Shown here in pieces: positions 1 to 7,918 of a DNA stretch of 7,918 nt. Origin of the DNA: a virus (taxonomy: Duplodnaviria > Heunggongvirae > Uroviricota > Caudoviricetes); IMG/VR virus record IMGVR_UViG_2698536647_000001, positions 1 through 7,918 of that record. One strand, given 5' to 3'. A model generated the notes under the pieces. That model searched no databases and was not told the DNA's origin. It saw only the letters and a list, made by a program, of their open reading frames with translations. The position numbers were made by a program, and so were the translations under genes. How positions within the stretch are numbered: position 1 is the stretch's first letter; the number at the start of each line of letters is the position of its first letter.

Positions 1-1
1 A

Positions 2-190
2 GGGGATCCGACTACAGCGAATGAAATTCACGCTTTCCTTCGGCGGCATAAAGTGAAGTCGTTTATTTTCACACCGCCTTTCGGCGATACCGCGCTGTGG
101 CGTGTCGAGGCTGACACGCTCAAAAAGGTGGTTAAAAACGTAAAAGTGATAACCGTAACCGCAACGTTTGAACAGGCATTTGCACCATGA
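2..190 (+). CDS. M: Minor tail protein M, C-terminal fragment (5' end lies outside the window)
   Basis: Hand translation of frame 2 is open from the window edge to TGA at 188-190: ...KSFIFTPPFGDTALWRVEADTLKKVVKNVKVITVTATFEQAFAP*. It resembles the lambda gpM C-terminus as I recall it (SFLWTPPY...EFEQ). The stop overlaps the L start (ATGA), and the gene sits immediately upstream of L as in lambda. Confidence 0.7.
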   Translation, partial: GDPTTANEIHAFLRRHKVKSFIFTPPFGDTALWRVEADTLKKVVKNVKVITVTATFEQAFAP

Positions 191-942
191 GTCTTAATGC
201 TGATTATCAAAAACTCGAGCCGGGCAATGAAGTCCGGCTTTTTTCTGTCGATGGCACAGCGTTCGGTATGTCAGATGTACTCCGCTTCCACGCACATAAT
301 ATCGCGCATACCCCGGAAGAGATTGAGGCTGCAGGCGGGGATGAGAATAAACTTCCGGCGAAGTCCATCTGGTGGCAGGGGGAGGAGTATAAAGCCTGGC
401 CGTGTCAGGTTGAGGGTATTGAAGCGACTACGGACGGTACCAGTCCACAGCCAAAACTGAGTGTGGCGAACCTGGACAGCTCGATCTCAGCGCTCTGTCT
501 GGCGTATGACGATCTGCTGCAGGCGAAAGTGAGTATCCACGACACGCTGGCACAGTATCTGGACGCCAGAAATTTTCCGCAGGGCAATCCCACTGCAGAC
601 CCGTCACAGGAAAAGCTGAAGGTCTTTTATATCGATGCCAGAAGCACCGAGACGGATGAATCTGTTGAATTTACGCTTTCCAGTCCGATGGATTTACAGG
701 GCCAGATGATACCCACGCGGCAGCTGCATTCGTTATGCAGCTGGTGCATCCGGAACAAGTACCGGACCGGCGACGGCTGCGACTATGCCGGAACGCGCTA
801 TTTCGACAAAAACAATAATCCGGTTGACGATCCATCGCTGGATGTCTGCAACGGCACGCTGACGGCCTGCAAGCTCCGGCACGGAGACAGCAACGAGCTG
901 CCGTTTGGCGGTTTCCCCGGTACATCTCTTATCAGGAGCTGA
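187..942 (+). CDS. L: Minor tail protein L (tail tip assembly, Fe-S cluster-binding family)
   Basis: 251-aa ORF with ATG start. It has the C-terminal cysteine cluster (CSWC...C...C...C) typical of lambda gpL-family proteins, and lies between M and K as in lambda. Its start overlaps the M stop (ATGA). Confidence 0.88.
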   Translation: MSLNADYQKLEPGNEVRLFSVDGTAFGMSDVLRFHAHNIAHTPEEIEAAGGDENKLPAKSIWWQGEEYKAWPCQVEGIEATTDGTSPQPKLSVANLDSSISALCLAYDDLLQAKVSIHDTLAQYLDARNFPQGNPTADPSQEKLKVFYIDARSTETDESVEFTLSSPMDLQGQMIPTRQLHSLCSWCIRNKYRTGDGCDYAGTRYFDKNNNPVDDPSLDVCNGTLTACKLRHGDSNELPFGGFPGTSLIRS

Positions 943-943
943 T

Positions 944-1675
944 ATGCGCCAGAAAACCATTGATGCCATCATGGCACACGCTGCAGCGGAATATCCGCGA
1001 GAGTGCTGCGGCGTGGTGGCACAGAAAAGCCGGGTTGAGCGCTATTTTCCCTGTCGTAATCTCGCAGCAGAGCCGACTGAACATTTTCACCTGTCCCCCG
1101 AAGATTACGCAGCGGCAGAAGACTGGGGGACGGTGGTGGCCATTGTTCACAGCCATCCTGATGCGACGACGCAGGCCAGCGAGCTGGATAAGGCGCAGTG
1201 TGATGCAACGCTGCTGCCCTGGCATATTGTGAGCTGGCCAGAGGGGGATTTACGTACCATTCAGCCACGCGGGGAGCTGCCATTGCTGGAGCGTCCGTTC
1301 GTGCTTGGCCACTTCGATTGCTGGGGTCTGGTAATGAGCTATTTCCGGCAGACCCACTGTATCGAGCTCCACGATTACCGGGTGGATTATCCCTGGTGGG
1401 AAAACGACTACCCGGACAATTTCTATCAGGAGTGCTGGTACGAGTGCGGATTCAGGGAGTTTGATGGTCCGCCTCAGGAAGGGGACCTCGTCATCATGCA
1501 GGTGCAGGCCGATAAGTGGAATCATGCCGGGATTTTACTGGAGGGTAACATGCTGCTGCACCATCTTTACGGGCATCTGAGTCAACGTGTTCCTTATGGC
1601 GGATACTGGCAGGAGCGCACAATGAAGATCGTTCGCTATAAAGATGTAATGGCAGGTGAAACATGCAGGAAGTAA
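944..1675 (+). CDS. K: Tail assembly protein K (N-terminal MPN/JAMM domain plus C-terminal NlpC/P60 domain)
   Basis: The ATG at 944 is preceded by AGGAG at 934-938 (5-nt spacer). The track ORF begins at a TTG at 905 that overlaps L, so I prefer 944. A JAMM motif is visible (E in PRECCG; HSHPDATTQASELD = H-x-H-x7-S-x2-D). An NlpC/P60-like Cys (GHFDCWGLV) and His (KWNHAGILL) follow. Position between L and I matches lambda. Confidence 0.88.
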   Translation: MRQKTIDAIMAHAAAEYPRECCGVVAQKSRVERYFPCRNLAAEPTEHFHLSPEDYAAAEDWGTVVAIVHSHPDATTQASELDKAQCDATLLPWHIVSWPEGDLRTIQPRGELPLLERPFVLGHFDCWGLVMSYFRQTHCIELHDYRVDYPWWENDYPDNFYQECWYECGFREFDGPPQEGDLVIMQVQADKWNHAGILLEGNMLLHHLYGHLSQRVPYGGYWQERTMKIVRYKDVMAGETCRK

Positions 1676-2253
1676 TGACCCGCATTGAGCTTGGCGGCGT
1701 GCTCGGGAAAACATTCGGTAAAGTTCACCATCGCCTGATTTCCCGCGTGAACGAAGCGAGTGTTGCGCTGGCAAAGACTATACCGGGCTTTGAGCAGTTT
1801 ATGATTTCGAGCCAACGCCGTGGTCTCACTTATTCAGTATTCAAAGGGAAAAAGAATATTGGTGTTGATGACCTGGGTTACCCGGTCACCGGCGATGTCA
1901 TTCGCATTGTCCCGGTGATTATCGGGAGCAAAAAGGCCGGATTACTCCAGACAATACTTGGTGCAGTTCTGGTTGCCGTTGGGGCGGTGCTTAATTTCAC
2001 ACCCTGGGCTGCGGCATCACCATTCTTATACAAATTCGGTGCCGCAATGATGATTGGCGGGGTTGTTCAGATGCTTTCCCCTCAACCAGCGGGGCTGGCC
2101 AGCAAACAGAGTTCAGATAACCGCGCCTCATACGCGTTCGGTGGAGTCACCAACACCGCCGCGCAGGGCTATCCGGTACCGCTTCTTTATGGTCGTCGGC
2201 AAATCGGCGGTGCGATTATTTCTGCCGGGATTTATGTCGAAGACCAGCAATAA
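1663..2253 (+). CDS. I: Tail assembly protein I (gpI-like, hydrophobic Gly/Ala-rich C-terminal half)
   Basis: 196-aa ORF overlapping the K stop. An alternative start is the ATG at 1675 in a TAATG stop/start overlap. The Gly/Ala/Val-rich hydrophobic segment (LLQTILGAVLVAVGAVLNF...MMIGGVVQMLSP) and C-terminal PVPLLYG motif resemble lambda gpI, and it lies directly upstream of J. Confidence 0.85.
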   Translation: MQEVMTRIELGGVLGKTFGKVHHRLISRVNEASVALAKTIPGFEQFMISSQRRGLTYSVFKGKKNIGVDDLGYPVTGDVIRIVPVIIGSKKAGLLQTILGAVLVAVGAVLNFTPWAAASPFLYKFGAAMMIGGVVQMLSPQPAGLASKQSSDNRASYAFGGVTNTAAQGYPVPLLYGRRQIGGAIISAGIYVEDQQ

Positions 2254-2269
2254 ATAAAAACCTCCTTTC

Positions 2270-2295
2270 AGGCCACCTCAGGGTGGCCTTTTTTA
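2270..2295 (+). terminator. Putative rho-independent terminator between I and J
   Basis: Perfect inverted repeat AGGCCACC (2270-2277) / GGTGGCCT (2282-2289) with loop TCAG, followed directly by a T-run (2289-2294). It sits 17 nt after the I stop and just upstream of the J start. Confidence 0.5.
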
Positions 2296-2305
2296 TGGGC
2301 GCAAT

Positions 2306-5300
2306 ATGGCTACATCTACTCCGATTAGAGGCCGCAAGGGCGGCAGCTCCAGTTCACGCACCCCGACTGAACAACCAGACGATCTCCAGTCCGTAGCGAA
2401 AGCCAAAATTCTTGTTGCACTGGGAGAGGGCGAATTTGCAGGGCAGTTGACGGCGAAGGATATCTATCTCGATGGCACGCCACTGGAGAATGCAGACGGA
2501 TCGCAAAACTTCAGTGGCGTGGCGTGGGAATTTCGTCCGGGGACTCAGGCACAAAAATATATTCAGGGTATCCCCGGCACAGAAAATGAAATCAGCGTGG
2601 GCACCGAAGTGTCAAGCACCACCGGCTGGACACATACCTTTACCAACACGCAACTGTCAGCCGTTCGCCTGCGCCTCAAGTGGCCATCGCTTTTTAAACA
2701 GGAGGATGATGGCGATCTGGTTGGCTATTCAATTAACTACGCTATTGATCTGCAGACCGATGGCGGCACCTGGCAGACGGTACTTAATACCAGCGTAACC
2801 GGCAAGACAACTTCCGGCTACGAACGCAGCCATCGTATCGATTTACCACAGGCAGGCAGTACATGGACGGTGCGCCTGCGTAAGCTTACGGCGGATGCCA
2901 ACAGCGCGAAAATTGGCGACACGATGACGCTGCAGAGCTACACAGAGGTTATTGACGCCAAACTGCGTTATCCAAATACCGCGCTGCTGTACATCGAATT
3001 CGACTCAAGCCAGTTTAACGGCTCTATCCCGCAAATATCCTGCGAACCGCGAGGGCGTGTAATCCGCGTTCCGGATACGTATGACCCGGAGACCCGCACC
3101 TACAGCGGCACATGGACAGGGGCGTTTAAGTGGGCGTGGACGGATAATCCAGCCTGGATTTTTTACGATCTGGTGGTGAGCGACCGCTTTGGGCTGGGCA
3201 ATCGCCTGACGGCGGCCAATATTGATAAATGGACGCTTTATCAGGTCGCGCAATATTGCGATCAGCCGGTTCCTGATGGTAAAGGCGGTAGCGGCACTGA
3301 GCCTCGCTATACCTGTAACGTGTACGTGCAGGAGAGGAATGACGCCTATACCGTGTTACGTGATTTTGCGGCGATATTCCGGGGCATGACGTACTGGGGT
3401 GGCGATCAAATCGTTGCGCTGGCGGATATGCCCCGCGATGTGGATTACAGCTACACGCGTGCAAACGTGGTTAATGGGCGCTTTACCTATTCGGGCAGCA
3501 CCACCAAAACCCGCTATACCACGGCACTGGTTTCCTGGTCCGATCCGGGTAATGCCTACGCGGATGCGATGGAGCCTGTATTTGAGCAGGATCTCGTTGC
3601 TCGCTTTGGCACAAATCAGCTCGAAATGACAGCCATTGGTTGTACCCGGCAGTCAGAGGCAAACCGCAAAGGACGTTGGGGTATCCTGACCAATAACAAG
3701 GATCGCATCGTGTCGTTCGATGTTGGTCTTGACGGTAAGATCCCACAGCCTGGTTATATCATCGCGGTTGCCGATGAGCTGCTTTCCGGAAAAGTGATGG
3801 GAGGGCGCATCAGCGCGGTTAACGGTCGCGTTATCACGCTTGATCGTGATTCGGCAGCCGCTCCCGGAAGCCGTCTGATGGTTAACCTTCCGTCCGGCGC
3901 ATCGCAGAGCAGGACGATACAGAGCGTAAACGGGCGGGCCGTCACTGTGACAACGGCATACAGCGAAACACCTGCAGTGGAATCGGTGTGGATTGTCGAG
4001 TCTGAAGAGCTTTACGCGCAGCAATATCGCGTTATCAGCGTTACGGATAATAATGACGGAACGTATTCGATTGCTGGCGCTTTGCACGATCCGGATAAAT
4101 ATGCGCGTATCGATACCGGTGCCATTATCGACCAGCGGCCAATAAGTGTAATTCCGCCCGGTAATCAGTCCCCGCCAGCTAATATCGCGATCAGTTCGTT
4201 TTCTGTCGTTCAGCAGAATATCAGCGTTGAGACCATGCGCGTCAGCTGGGACCAGGCGAAAAATGCTATCGCGTATGAGGCACAGTGGCGTCGCAATGAC
4301 GGGAACTGGGTGAATGTGCCGCGCAGCTCCACCACGTCATTCGATGTTCCGGGGATTTATGCAGGACGCTACCTGGTTCGCGTGCGTGCCATCAATGCCG
4401 CCGAAATTTCATCTGGGTGGGGCTATTCAGAAGAGAAAACGTTGACGGGTAAAGTGGGAAACCCACCGAAGCCGGTTGGCTTCATCGCTTCTGAAAACGT
4501 GGTATTCGGTATCGAGCTGAACTGGGGATTCCCGGCGAATACCGAAGACACGCTGAAGACGGAAATTCAGTACAGCCTGACCGGTAGCGAAGATGATGCA
4601 ATGCTGCTGGCCGATGTGCCTTATCCGCAGCGCAAATATCAGCAGATGGGTCTTAAGGCAGGGCAGATTTTCTGGTATCGCGCGCAACTGGTCGACAGAA
4701 CGGGAAACGAGTCCGGGTATACCGACTGGGTGCGAGGTCAGGCCAGCATCGATGTTTCCGATATCACCGATGTGATCCTGGAGGAGATCAAAGACTCCGC
4801 TACGTTTAAAGATCTGATTGAGAGCGCAGTGGACAGCAATGAAAAAATTGCTGGCATGGCTGACGAAATCAAAAACCATGCCGACGAGCTGGAGCAGCAG
4901 GCGAAAGATATACAGGAAAACGCTGACGGGCTGGCGCAGGCGGCGGTAAAAATCGATGAGATTTCCGTTTCAATGGACGGTATGACAGGAGGCGTGAAGA
5001 ATTCGGCAATTGCGATAATCCAGAATGGGCTGGCGCAGGTTGTCAGTCGTCGTTCCCAGACAGCAACAAACGCCGGGAACAGTGCCAGTATAGACAGAGT
5101 GGATACTACGATTGCCGATACCAGCCAGGCGGTCGCACGCGCGCTGGTCACACTGGATGCAGAAGCTGGTGGCAATATCTCTAACTCAACGGACCTGACA
5201 GAAACTCTTGCTGATTTCACCCAGGCTTCGGCAACAAAAATCAACACTCTGACTGTTAAATCAGGCGAAAACAGTGCAGCGATAAACGTCAACGCACAGG

Positions 5301-5761
5301 CTATAGCAGATGTAAACGGTAACCTCAGCGCGATGTATAACATCAAGGTGGGGGTGTCCAGTAACGGGCAGTATTACGCTGCCGGGATGGGTATTGGGGT
5401 TCAAAATACACCCTCCGGCATGCAGTCACAGGTAATCTTCCTGGCAGACCGTTTCGCCGTGACTACTATGGTCGGCGGGACTGTAACACTGCCGTTCGTT
5501 ATCCAGAATGGCCAGGCCATTATCAGGGATACAGTCATTGGCGACGGGACCATAAGCAATGCAAAAATTGGCAATTACATCCAGTCGAACAATTATGTTG
5601 CCGGCTCTGTTGGCTGGAAACTGGATAAGTCCGGGACGTTTGAGAACTACGGTTCGACAGCTGGGGAGGGAGCCATGAAGCAGACCAACCAGACAATCAG
5701 CGTCAAGGATGGCAACAACGTTCTGAGAGTGCAGGTTGGCCGATTAACGGGGGTGTTCTGA
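2306..5761 (+). CDS. J: Tail tip / host specificity protein J (central tail fibre)
   Basis: 1151-aa ORF, about the size of lambda gpJ (about 1130 aa). Segments match my recollection of lambda J (e.g. TWTGAFKWAWTDNPAWIFYDLV...YCDQPVPDG...TEPRYTCNVY versus lambda GIWDGTFKPAYSNNMAWCLWDML...YCDQSVPDG...TEPRITCNAY). There is an FN3-like segment (VSWDQAKNAIAYEAQWRRNDGNW...YLVRVRAINA), an acidic coiled-coil-like stretch and a divergent C-terminus. It follows I as in lambda. Confidence 0.92.
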   Translation: MATSTPIRGRKGGSSSSRTPTEQPDDLQSVAKAKILVALGEGEFAGQLTAKDIYLDGTPLENADGSQNFSGVAWEFRPGTQAQKYIQGIPGTENEISVGTEVSSTTGWTHTFTNTQLSAVRLRLKWPSLFKQEDDGDLVGYSINYAIDLQTDGGTWQTVLNTSVTGKTTSGYERSHRIDLPQAGSTWTVRLRKLTADANSAKIGDTMTLQSYTEVIDAKLRYPNTALLYIEFDSSQFNGSIPQISCEPRGRVIRVPDTYDPETRTYSGTWTGAFKWAWTDNPAWIFYDLVVSDRFGLGNRLTAANIDKWTLYQVAQYCDQPVPDGKGGSGTEPRYTCNVYVQERNDAYTVLRDFAAIFRGMTYWGGDQIVALADMPRDVDYSYTRANVVNGRFTYSGSTTKTRYTTALVSWSDPGNAYADAMEPVFEQDLVARFGTNQLEMTAIGCTRQSEANRKGRWGILTNNKDRIVSFDVGLDGKIPQPGYIIAVADELLSGKVMGGRISAVNGRVITLDRDSAAAPGSRLMVNLPSGASQSRTIQSVNGRAVTVTTAYSETPAVESVWIVESEELYAQQYRVISVTDNNDGTYSIAGALHDPDKYARIDTGAIIDQRPISVIPPGNQSPPANIAISSFSVVQQNISVETMRVSWDQAKNAIAYEAQWRRNDGNWVNVPRSSTTSFDVPGIYAGRYLVRVRAINAAEISSGWGYSEEKTLTGKVGNPPKPVGFIASENVVFGIELNWGFPANTEDTLKTEIQYSLTGSEDDAMLLADVPYPQRKYQQMGLKAGQIFWYRAQLVDRTGNESGYTDWVRGQASIDVSDITDVILEEIKDSATFKDLIESAVDSNEKIAGMADEIKNHADELEQQAKDIQENADGLAQAAVKIDEISVSMDGMTGGVKNSAIAIIQNGLAQVVSRRSQTATNAGNSASIDRVDTTIADTSQAVARALVTLDAEAGGNISNSTDLTETLADFTQASATKINTLTVKSGENSAAINVNAQAIADVNGNLSAMYNIKVGVSSNGQYYAAGMGIGVQNTPSGMQSQVIFLADRFAVTTMVGGTVTLPFVIQNGQAIIRDTVIGDGTISNAKIGNYIQSNNYVAGSVGWKLDKSGTFENYGSTAGEGAMKQTNQTISVKDGNNVLRVQVGRLTGVF

Positions 5762-5762
5762 T

Positions 5763-6065
5763 ATGGCTTATGGAATACAGACCTGGGATGCTTCGGGAAA
5801 CCCCAACAACTACGGAATCAAGCCCGTTTCCGTTGTTGGACGTATACAACTTGCCGCCGGACAAAACTCCGGCAGCTGGTCTTTTACGGTGCCCTCAGGA
5901 ATGAAAGTTGGTTTTGTTCTTTCACTTGATGAAGGAGGTAACAGCGTAGGGCGGCGCATTGTCGCGTCAGGGAGCACAATAACCGTAAGCGCTGCATCTT
6001 CTGTAGGTCTGGGTAATTATCCGGCCTCAAAGTGTGAAGTGGTCGTTTTCATGGAGAAAGCATAA
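5763..6065 (+). CDS. Hypothetical protein, first gene of a post-J module (unknown function; carries WDASG and SGSW motifs)
   Basis: 100-aa ORF whose ATG lies 1 nt after the J stop, with a G-rich SD-like stretch upstream. Its stop overlaps the next start (TAATG). No signal peptide or TM segment is apparent. It shares motifs with the next ORF. Confidence 0.6.
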   Translation: MAYGIQTWDASGNPNNYGIKPVSVVGRIQLAAGQNSGSWSFTVPSGMKVGFVLSLDEGGNSVGRRIVASGSTITVSAASSVGLGNYPASKCEVVVFMEKA

Positions 6066-6739
6066 TGGCCGAATTTGGCGCGATGATATTAATGGACAAC
6101 GGGAACCCATTTGTAACGCCCCAGTCAACGCCTTTTTGTCTTTACGGCAAGTACACTTTCAACTCCTCTGCTAATGGCAGTTCGCAGCAAGTTGCTAAGA
6201 ATATTGCATTAAATGCTGACTACCCTGTGATGGTATTTATCAGGACCACAAATACCGCCCAGCCCACGCCAGTAATATCTTACCGGAACGGCGGAAATGT
6301 ATATGTCGCGGGGGTTAATCCCTATAACCAAAGTTTCACTTTAACGGCGTACGTTTTTGCCATATTCCCGCAGATATTACCGAAATGGGGTTTGGCAATA
6401 TGGGATGCGAGCGGAAAGCTTGTGTTAACTAATGAGTCCCGTGTGCTATCAGACCTGCAGACGGTTGGCACGCCTGGTGCAAACGGCGGGATAAATATTG
6501 ACCAGACGCTGAGCGGGTCATGGGCCGTTGCACCTGCTCAGTTGGGTCAGACCATCATTGTGAATAATTCAACCCAGCCTCCGACTATCTACACGATAAA
6601 TGCTTATTCTTCATGCAGGTTTGACGGGGCCAATACGAGGATAAACGCAGGGGGGACCTCCACTGGGGCAGGTTCACCTGGAGGGGGAACGAATACTGGC
6701 ATTTCATTAACCGCCATAAATACAGCGGCCTATGATTGA
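6065..6739 (+). CDS. Hypothetical protein, second gene of the post-J module (apparent tandem duplication of the upstream ORF's domain; Gly-rich C-terminal tail)
   Basis: 224-aa ORF with GGAG at 6053-6056, 8 nt upstream of the ATG. It contains WGLAIWDASGK and SGSW (compare YGIQTWDASGN and SGSW in the 100-aa ORF), and its N-terminus MAEFGAMILMDNGNP echoes MAYGIQTWDASGNP. It ends in a Gly/Thr/Ser-rich tail (GGTSTGAGSPGGGTNTG). It looks more AT-rich than J by eye. Confidence 0.6.
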   Translation: MAEFGAMILMDNGNPFVTPQSTPFCLYGKYTFNSSANGSSQQVAKNIALNADYPVMVFIRTTNTAQPTPVISYRNGGNVYVAGVNPYNQSFTLTAYVFAIFPQILPKWGLAIWDASGKLVLTNESRVLSDLQTVGTPGANGGINIDQTLSGSWAVAPAQLGQTIIVNNSTQPPTIYTINAYSSCRFDGANTRINAGGTSTGAGSPGGGTNTGISLTAINTAAYD

Positions 6740-6769
6740 TTGATCGTTTTTAGCGATAAATAACATAAT
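6740..6769 (+). promoter_or_regulatory. Candidate sigma70 promoter for the lipoprotein moron
   Basis: TTGATC (6740-6745), an 18-bp spacer, then CATAAT (6764-6769), inside a 110-bp AT-rich intergenic region directly upstream of the lipoprotein gene. This is pattern-based only. Confidence 0.3.
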
Positions 6770-6850
6770 ATTGATCTATCCAATCAATTATACCCACCAG
6801 AATTGTATTGGTATCGTCTAAGATACTGAATTCCTCTGGATACTATCAAA

Positions 6851-7084
6851 ATGAGAAAACTGATTATCTGCATGGCAGGCGCTGTCATGCTTACAGGATG
6901 CGCTGGCGTAATTGAGAAACAGGAACCAGTTTGCAGCGGCACTGCAATCGTTGGCGGTCAGGAAACTACGGTTCAGATTTACGGTGTGCGTAAACAAAAC
7001 AACCAGACGCAGTACCGGGCTGGATATCCTTTCAGCTGGCGCTGGGTAAGTGCGAATACATTTACCGAAACAACCTGCAAATAA
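6851..7084 (+). CDS. Small secreted lipoprotein (moron); possible Cor-like superinfection-exclusion lipoprotein
   Basis: 77-aa ORF. The N-terminus MRKLIICMAGAVMLTGC has a basic n-region, a hydrophobic core and an LTGC lipobox, so a signal peptidase II site is predicted. The +2 residue is Ala, which suggests outer-membrane sorting. The mature part has two further Cys. The gene is bracketed by an AT-rich promoter-like region and a downstream hairpin plus T-run. Its position between J and the tail fibre gene is where lambdoid phages carry cor or lom. Confidence 0.7.
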   Translation: MRKLIICMAGAVMLTGCAGVIEKQEPVCSGTAIVGGQETTVQIYGVRKQNNQTQYRAGYPFSWRWVSANTFTETTCK

Positions 7085-7105
7085 CCCACTACGCTTAAAC
7101 ATAAA

Positions 7106-7128
7106 CCTCGCTCCGGCGGGGTTTTTTT
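7106..7128 (+). terminator. Putative rho-independent terminator after the lipoprotein gene
   Basis: Stem CCTCGC (7106-7111) / GCGGGG (7116-7121) with one G-U pair and loop TCCG, followed by T7 (7122-7128). It lies 22 nt after the lipoprotein stop. Confidence 0.45.
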
Positions 7129-7144
7129 ATTGCCTGGAGAAAAT

Positions 7145-7918
7145 ATGCTTTATAACACCGGCACCATCGCCATTAATGGAAATACCGCCACCGGGACGGG
7201 TACAAACTGGACGGCACCGGCCAGCCAGGTTCGCGCTGGCCAGACAATTATCGTGATGTCTAACCCGGTGCAACTGTTCCAGATTTCATCCGTGAACAGC
7301 GCCACGTCAATGACGGTTACTCCAGCTGCTTCCCCGGCGCTGAGCGGCCAGAAGTACGGCATTCTGGTATCAGACAATATCTCGGTCGACGGCCTGGCAC
7401 AGGCTATGTCACAGCTCATCAAAGAGTACGACGAGAATATTGGCGCGTGGGAGACGTTCGCCACCACCTCAGCAAACCAGAGCATCACCGTTACCATCAA
7501 CGGCACCGCCGTAACCATCCCAGGCATCGGTAAACTTGCGCAGAAAGGGAGCAATGGTGCGCTTGCAATCGCTGACGGCGGGACCGGGGCAACGACTGCA
7601 GAAGACGCTCGCAAAAACTTCGGTTTAGGAAGTAGTGCGACAAAGGATGTCGGAACTGCGGCAGGGAATGTTATGCAGGTGGGAGCTTTTGGGGTTGGTG
7701 CTGTTCTCCAAAATAAGCCCACAGATGCCAGTTCATCCTTCATCAGTGATGCTGATGGCAATACTCTGTGGGCTCCTTCGTATGGCTGTGGGTTTCAGAG
7801 TTCCTACACCGGGCATCGAATTGCGCAGCTGTGGATTACTTACGGTAATGCGGTATTCAGCCGTTTTCTAACAACCACTGACCCTCAAACACCAAAATCA
7901 TCAGTGCCGTGGGCGCAG
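7145..7918 (+). CDS. stf: Side tail fibre protein, N-terminal part (3' end lies outside the window)
   Basis: The ATG at 7145 is preceded by GGAG (7136-7139, 5-nt spacer). My hand translation is open for 258 codons to the window end: MLYNTGTIAINGNTATGTGTNWTAPASQVRAGQTIIVMSNPVQLF... It contains the tail-fibre hallmark ...GALAIADGGTGATTAEDARKNFGLG.... It is missing from the supplied ORF track only because it has no stop inside the window. Confidence 0.8.
   Translation, partial: MLYNTGTIAINGNTATGTGTNWTAPASQVRAGQTIIVMSNPVQLFQISSVNSATSMTVTPAASPALSGQKYGILVSDNISVDGLAQAMSQLIKEYDENIGAWETFATTSANQSITVTINGTAVTIPGIGKLAQKGSNGALAIADGGTGATTAEDARKNFGLGSSATKDVGTAAGNVMQVGAFGVGAVLQNKPTDASSSFISDADGNTLWAPSYGCGFQSSYTGHRIAQLWITYGNAVFSRFLTTTDPQTPKSSVPWAQ

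Follow-up and report, generated by a model that had tools for sequence, protein, structure and literature searches.

Cor and other accessory genes of lambdoid tail regions

The closest described relatives of the gene studied here are the Cor proteins of lambdoid phages. In the account given in PMC3594210 (citing Uc-Mass et al. 2004), Cor of HK022, N15 and phi80 inactivates FhuA, protecting lysogens from FhuA-requiring phages; this inactivation was accompanied by lower ferrichrome uptake and by protection against colicin M. The cor gene of phi80 blocks infection by T1, as summarized in PMC2885432 from Kozyrev & Rybchin 1987 and Vostrov et al. 1996, because T1 and phi80 share FhuA. The same article cites Kozyrev & Rybchin 1987 and Vostrov 1996 for Cor-dependent lysogenic conversion in phi80 and N15 lysogens. 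A 2018 study, as cited in PMC9311878, described interactions of Cor with several other outer-membrane proteins. In the phi80 record FN582354, cor is annotated as a moron with -35 and -10 elements, a start site, a 16-residue signal peptide processed by Lsp, a lipidated cysteine and a terminator.

More distant members of the same family (PHROG 1119, NF047972) are found in N15, HK022, HK75, mEp167, ES18, T1 and the Drexlerviridae, at 35-79% identity. These orthologues share the lipobox, two conserved cysteines and a position beside the tail fibre genes. In T1-like lytic phages, Cor is active in the course of lytic infection rather than from a prophage. [quoted passage not shown] Lom is an eight-stranded outer-membrane beta-barrel. 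HK97 gp15 is a superinfection exclusion moron, again with a protein described as unrelated to Cor, and it blocks phage entry rather than receptor binding (PMC3594210).

We analyzed a window of 7,918 nt, the whole stretch of DNA under study, which is the tail module of a lambdoid siphovirus. Positions 1-7629 are 98.1% identical to phage mEp237, the megablast match stopping at 7629, and prophages of E. coli ES6 and ECONIH4 are about 98% identical to the window. The order J-gp22-gp23-cor-stf is common to the window, phi80, mEp237 and HK75 (Table 1). An earlier note on this DNA had located the lipoprotein gene between J and stf; it does adjoin stf, but gp22 and gp23 separate it from J. These two genes are always found between J and cor. 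In PHROGs they fall under phrog_557 ("outer membrane protein") and phrog_425 ("membrane associated protein"), and they were without a match in Pfam, NCBIfam and PADLOC. Further upstream, the K-like ORF, when read from its TTG start, has 38 nt (905..942) in common with the end of the L-like ORF; its true start may be an internal ATG giving "...MRQKTIDAIMAH". A search of the whole window against Rfam found no RNA family.

Table 1. Features of the window, in window coordinates, with the basis of each assignment
Feature	Coordinates	Strand	Basis
L-like protein ORF	187..942	+	ORF list
K-like protein ORF, TTG start as listed	905..1675	+	ORF list
I-like protein ORF	1663..2253	+	ORF list
Tail tip protein J, 1151 aa	2306..5761	+	ORF list
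gp22 homologue (phi80/N15), 100 aa, conserved	5763..6065	+	ORF list, gene-order comparison
gp23 homologue (phi80/N15), 224 aa, conserved	6065..6739	+	ORF list, gene-order comparison
AT-rich gp23-cor spacer with candidate promoters and weak ribosome-binding site	6740..6850	+	GC 0.31 vs 0.53
Candidate promoter A: TTGATC (6740-6745), 18 nt, CATAAT (6764-6769)	6740..6769	+	Consensus scan, 9/12 matches
Candidate promoter B: weak -35 ATTATA (6787-6792), extended -10 TGGTATCGT (6809-6817), start site 6825	6787..6825	+	phi80 annotation transfer
cor CDS, 77 aa and stop, ATG start	6851..7084	+	NF047972, PHROG 1119, identity to phi80 Cor
Lipoprotein signal peptide, residues 1-16	6851..6898	+	Sequence; identical 16-aa peptide annotated in FN582354
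Mature 61-aa lipoprotein, from predicted lipidated Cys17	6899..7081	+	38-homologue alignment, AlphaFold model
Intrinsic terminator: hairpin 7103-7124, then T7 at 7122-7128	7103..7128	+	Hairpin scan, RNA fold, phi80/mEp237 annotation
Tail fibre gene stf, incomplete at window end	from 7145	+	ORF list

Identity of the lipoprotein gene

The ORF downstream of the spacer encodes a protein beginning MRKLIICMAGAVMLTGC... (the same N-terminus is also written MRKLIICMAGAVMLTGCAG...), which is identical to Cor of phi80 (UniProt P17651, "adsorption-inhibiting cor protein"; CBH95076.1, AFV29164.1); the identical protein is also carried by mEp213, mEp237 and HK225. Among 50,697 phage records searched by tblastn, 242 contain a Cor homologue, 15 of them at ≥99% identity; within those 15, the matches listed (phi80, FN582354; mEp213; HK225) are 100% identical over all 77 residues. 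The curated equivalog model NCBIfam NF047972 ("phage exclusion lipoprotein Cor") gave a score of 140.9 bits (cutoff 31), with residues 1-76 aligned to profile positions 1-76 of 78, and PHROG 1119 ("Cor superinfection exclusion protein") matched residues 1-77 at 7.1e-37. The earlier note had suggested a Cor-like outer-membrane lipoprotein and an HMM search against the Cor family as a check on it. Both the search, which exceeded the cutoff of the Cor model by 110 bits, and the identity to the phi80 protein bear this suggestion out.

At E ≤ 0.001, 113 homologues were recovered by database search; most come from Escherichia, Enterobacter, Salmonella and other Enterobacterales, and their conserved pattern marks the ORF as a real gene. 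Two antisense ORFs overlap it (6818..7102, 94 aa, - strand; 6784..6942, 52 aa, - strand); both were set aside as unsupported, the homology of the plus-strand ORF being overwhelming. The cor region was present in ~1% (58/5426) of complete E. coli genomes and was chromosomal in all of them. PGAP had labelled the gene "cor: phage exclusion lipoprotein Cor" in 13 of the 15 genome rows listed. Pfam holds no family for Cor, and the protein drew only sub-threshold matches to DUF4223 and MiAMP1 (E about 0.03), which we attribute to the signal peptide or to chance. PADLOC, similarly, has no defence-system model for Cor.

The N-terminus has the organization of a lipoprotein signal peptide: a basic n-region (MRK), a hydrophobic core (LIICMAGAVM) and then LTG, the first three residues of the lipobox. 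The lipobox LTGC occupies residues 14-17, with Cys17 followed by Ala at position +2, so that the proposal of a lipoprotein gene is upheld by features that can be read directly from the sequence. There is no inner-membrane retention signal, position +2 being Ala rather than Asp. Conservation was assessed in an alignment of 38 full-length Cor homologues. G16 and C17 are ≥90% conserved, as are C28, Y55, W63 and W65; C76, Y44, P60 and F61 are invariant. Cys28 and Cys76 likely form an intramolecular disulfide, and a disulfide of that kind is common to Cor and the T5 protein Llp (van den Berg et al.). An AlphaFold2 model based on the 38 aligned sequences (mean pLDDT 82.4, above 90 over the mature domain) has five beta strands forming a small barrel.

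The earlier note had considered it equally likely that the gene specifies an undescribed exclusion or virulence lipoprotein, and had listed LamB, OmpC and BtuB alongside FhuA as receptors that might be affected. A lipoprotein aimed at one of these other receptors would fit a gene in an accessory-gene hotspot that has no Pfam family, and nothing beyond these two points speaks for it. The 100% identity to phi80 Cor excludes this alternative, the Cor equivalog model was passed by a wide margin, the receptor-binding end of J is of the phi80 (FhuA) type, and the literature on the identical protein points specifically to FhuA. We therefore regard an undescribed lipoprotein directed at LamB, OmpC, BtuB or the like as having next to no probability.

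Since the protein is identical to phi80 Cor, the identity of the gene is realistically irrefutable. We place at about 95% the probability that it is the cor ("conversion resistant") gene of a phi80/mEp237-type lambdoid phage or prophage, with the inactivation of FhuA as its function. As a feature it is already known, routinely annotated and ordinary, and the allele in the window is the founding allele of the Cor family.

Mosaic structure and transcription signals of the cor locus

Comparison with phi80 revealed a sharp mosaic joint in the locus. The cor CDS, the terminator and the opening bases of stf have the same DNA sequence as in phi80 and mEp237: across 6850-7149 (300 nt) there are 0 mismatches to phi80. 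Immediately upstream the picture changes, with 21 mismatches to phi80 in 6750-6849 and 10-20 per 100 nt in gp23, whereas 6400-7199 has 0-1 mismatches to mEp237 throughout. The window therefore carries, in the 110 bp upstream of cor, an allele that differs from phi80 at about 21 positions per 100 nt and matches mEp237; over the spacer proper (6740-6850), we counted 1 mismatch to mEp237 and about 20 to phi80. This pattern, read from the alignments, suggests a recent exchange of the cor cassette with a breakpoint that would lie just upstream of the cor start codon.

A second mosaic boundary lies inside stf, as judged from the alignment with mEp237, which diverges after about 7500 (36 mismatches per 100 nt across 7500-7918). 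The start of stf in FN582354 also contains an annotated antisense moron, "gene 25", with its own promoter and a terminator overlapping the cor hairpin. In the window, the corresponding segment (7150-7407, - strand) reads ATA (Ile) in place of the "gene 25" ATG start and is otherwise nearly identical; the frame stays open to 7761. The altered start and the longer open frame make antisense "gene 25" doubtful.

The earlier note had described an AT-rich spacer, a 77-aa lipoprotein ORF and a hairpin with a T-run, and all three were found where it had placed them. The spacer, which is conserved in an alignment of lambdoid cor loci, has a GC content of 0.31; the figure is 0.53 across the window and 0.54 in J and stf. 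A weak ribosome-binding site, CTGGA, is present about 11-15 nt before the cor ATG. A promoter had also been anticipated in the AT-rich region. Candidate A, with its 18-nt spacing and 9/12 consensus matches, is indeed present, but phi80 annotation designates a different site, which we mapped onto the window through the ungapped phi80 alignment as candidate B. Both candidates are predicted sigma-70 sites. The extended -10 motif of candidate B, TGnTATnnT, is kept in 5/5 aligned lambdoid cor loci; its -35 is poor, and its -10 matches the consensus at 4/6 positions. The ATAAT core of candidate A recurs in the aligned relatives, displaced by 1-2 nt. Because the scan of 6600-7300 yielded 3 promoter-like sites against 1.2 ± 1.0 in shuffled sequences, candidate A by itself is weak evidence for a promoter.

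Several repeated sequences occur in the same region. Two exact copies of ATTGATC (6739 and 6770), each containing a Dam GATC, hold the sole GATC sites beyond position 4811, and ATTGAT/ATCAAT inverted repeats are present as well. At the position where the window reads GCGATAAAT, phi80 and mEp237 carry a third GATC (GCGATCAAT). These sites could be bound by a regulator or be Dam-sensitive, or they could be chance occurrences in AT-rich DNA. A 12-nt inverted repeat (6731-6742/6781-6792, 92% complementary) was rejected as an element, as phi80 carries substitutions in both arms that weaken the pairing, and we treated it as an AT-rich coincidence or, at most, a lineage-specific feature. A Fur box, which would have implied co-regulation with iron-repressed fhuA, was also rejected: the best match was 11/19, and 1494/2000 shuffled sequences matched the consensus equally well.

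Regulation of cor could differ from that in phi80, because the control region is a distinct allele with ATTGATC and inverted repeats. A reading built on this difference would have the 110-bp region confer regulation unlike that of phi80, through another promoter or an unknown regulator acting at the repeats, and would, separately, make Cor an FhuA inhibitor of the Llp type; taken as a whole, we consider it unlikely.

The terminator hairpin downstream of cor has 9 pairs, 5 of them G-C, and a loop of 4. The predicted folding energy of the RNA from 7085-7140 is -17.6 kcal/mol (z = -2.57), a stability reached by 4/200 shuffled sequences. A rho-independent terminator is annotated at this position in phi80 and mEp237; HK75, LAU1 and Phi06_2987S retain both the hairpin and the T-run. 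The terminator proposed in the earlier note therefore holds in both structure and conservation.

These features raise the question of whether cor is a transcription unit of its own. The scan of 6600-7300 detected no terminator between gp23 and cor; late-operon transcripts therefore presumably read through cor. There was thus a possibility that Cor is made only within the late tail operon and that the promoter-like sequences arose by chance in AT-rich DNA. The modest quality of the promoter matches (9/12 for candidate A, and 3 sites against 1.2 expected) is compatible with this possibility, as is the GC content of the cor CDS, which at 0.49 equals that of gp23. Set against it is the Cor-dependent lysogenic conversion by phi80 and N15 reported in the sources cited in PMC2885432, from which it follows that cor is expressed from a repressed prophage. 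The terminator that cor possesses directly before stf and the conservation of the extended -10 in five lambdoid loci also argue against it. In Salmonella phage ES18 (NC_006949; 401-643 of the locus compared), cor likewise lies between a gp23 homologue and a tail fibre gene, but, unlike in the window, it is on the strand opposite to both. This inverted orientation implies that cor has its own promoter there and shows directly that it can act as an autonomous cassette. We conclude that expression confined to the late operon is very unlikely; the conversion phenotype, the conserved terminator and the ES18 orientation support independent transcription of cor. In the lysogen, cor would be expressed from its own promoter in the spacer, one or other of the candidates above, with the transcript ending at the hairpin and T-run.

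FhuA as the target and a proposed mode of action of Cor

The tail tip protein provides a second line of evidence on the receptor. Residues ~830-1151 of J are about 95% identical to phi80 J, whereas residues 1 to ~830 are only about 55% identical, so that J is chimeric relative to phi80 with a junction at about residue 830. The pattern resembles an exchange of the receptor-binding module that goes together with the presence of cor. Because the C-terminus of J is of the phi80 type, the phage very probably uses FhuA, and Cor would then block the phage's own receptor.

We propose the following route from gene product to exclusion. Signal peptidase II would cleave the 77-aa prolipoprotein before Cys17, and this residue would be lipidated; with Ala at +2, the protein should then pass to the outer membrane by the Lol pathway. 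The mature 61-aa Cor would be a small beta-barrel, probably clamped by the Cys28-Cys76 disulfide. [quoted passage not shown]

Llp contacts FhuA at the periplasmic face and causes the extracellular loops to refold; direct binding and allostery have been demonstrated for Llp (PDB 8A60, chain B with FhuA; 7QJF), whereas for Cor they are proposed. The two also differ in setting: Llp is expressed early by T5, a strictly lytic phage, from a gene adjoining that of the receptor-binding protein pb5. A 2026 preprint describes the molecular mechanism of Cor as not yet elucidated and gives a common architecture for Cor and Llp as a prediction. A Foldseek search with the Cor model returned nothing at E ≤ 0.001; Llp was at rank 29 (E 0.28), amid generic Tudor/SH3-like barrels. 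Structural alignments of Cor with Llp gave 12-13% identity (published: about 20%). Against the full set of PDB sequences, 8A60 and 7QJF among them, neither phmmer with the protein nor hmmsearch with the 38-sequence profile produced anything meaningful or any Llp match at E ≤ 10. The link between Cor and Llp would thus be one of predicted fold only: the structure comparison lends moderate support to an Llp-like action, and the sequence comparisons give no evidence of membership in the Llp family.

Cor might instead act otherwise than Llp, that is, by some means other than direct periplasmic binding and allostery. The undetectable sequence homology and the non-significant Foldseek match agree with such a difference, as does the statement in the 2026 preprint, and we also counted Arguijo-Hernandez et al. 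on this side. On balance, we lean towards the Llp-like periplasmic mechanism as somewhat the better supported, and a mode of action unlike that of Llp, while far from negligible, seems doubtful.

The outcome of an Llp-like or other action would be the inactivation of FhuA, the TonB-dependent ferrichrome transporter, as indicated by the phenotypes in the literature. With FhuA inactivated, T1, phi80, N15, HK022 and mEp phages would fail to adsorb, colicin M would be excluded and ferrichrome uptake would fall. By blocking the receptor of its own phage, Cor would shield the lysogen against competitors, and in the lytic cycle it probably also prevents the loss of progeny to cells already infected and to debris. 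Such a block on the phage's own receptor is the usual logic of superinfection exclusion.
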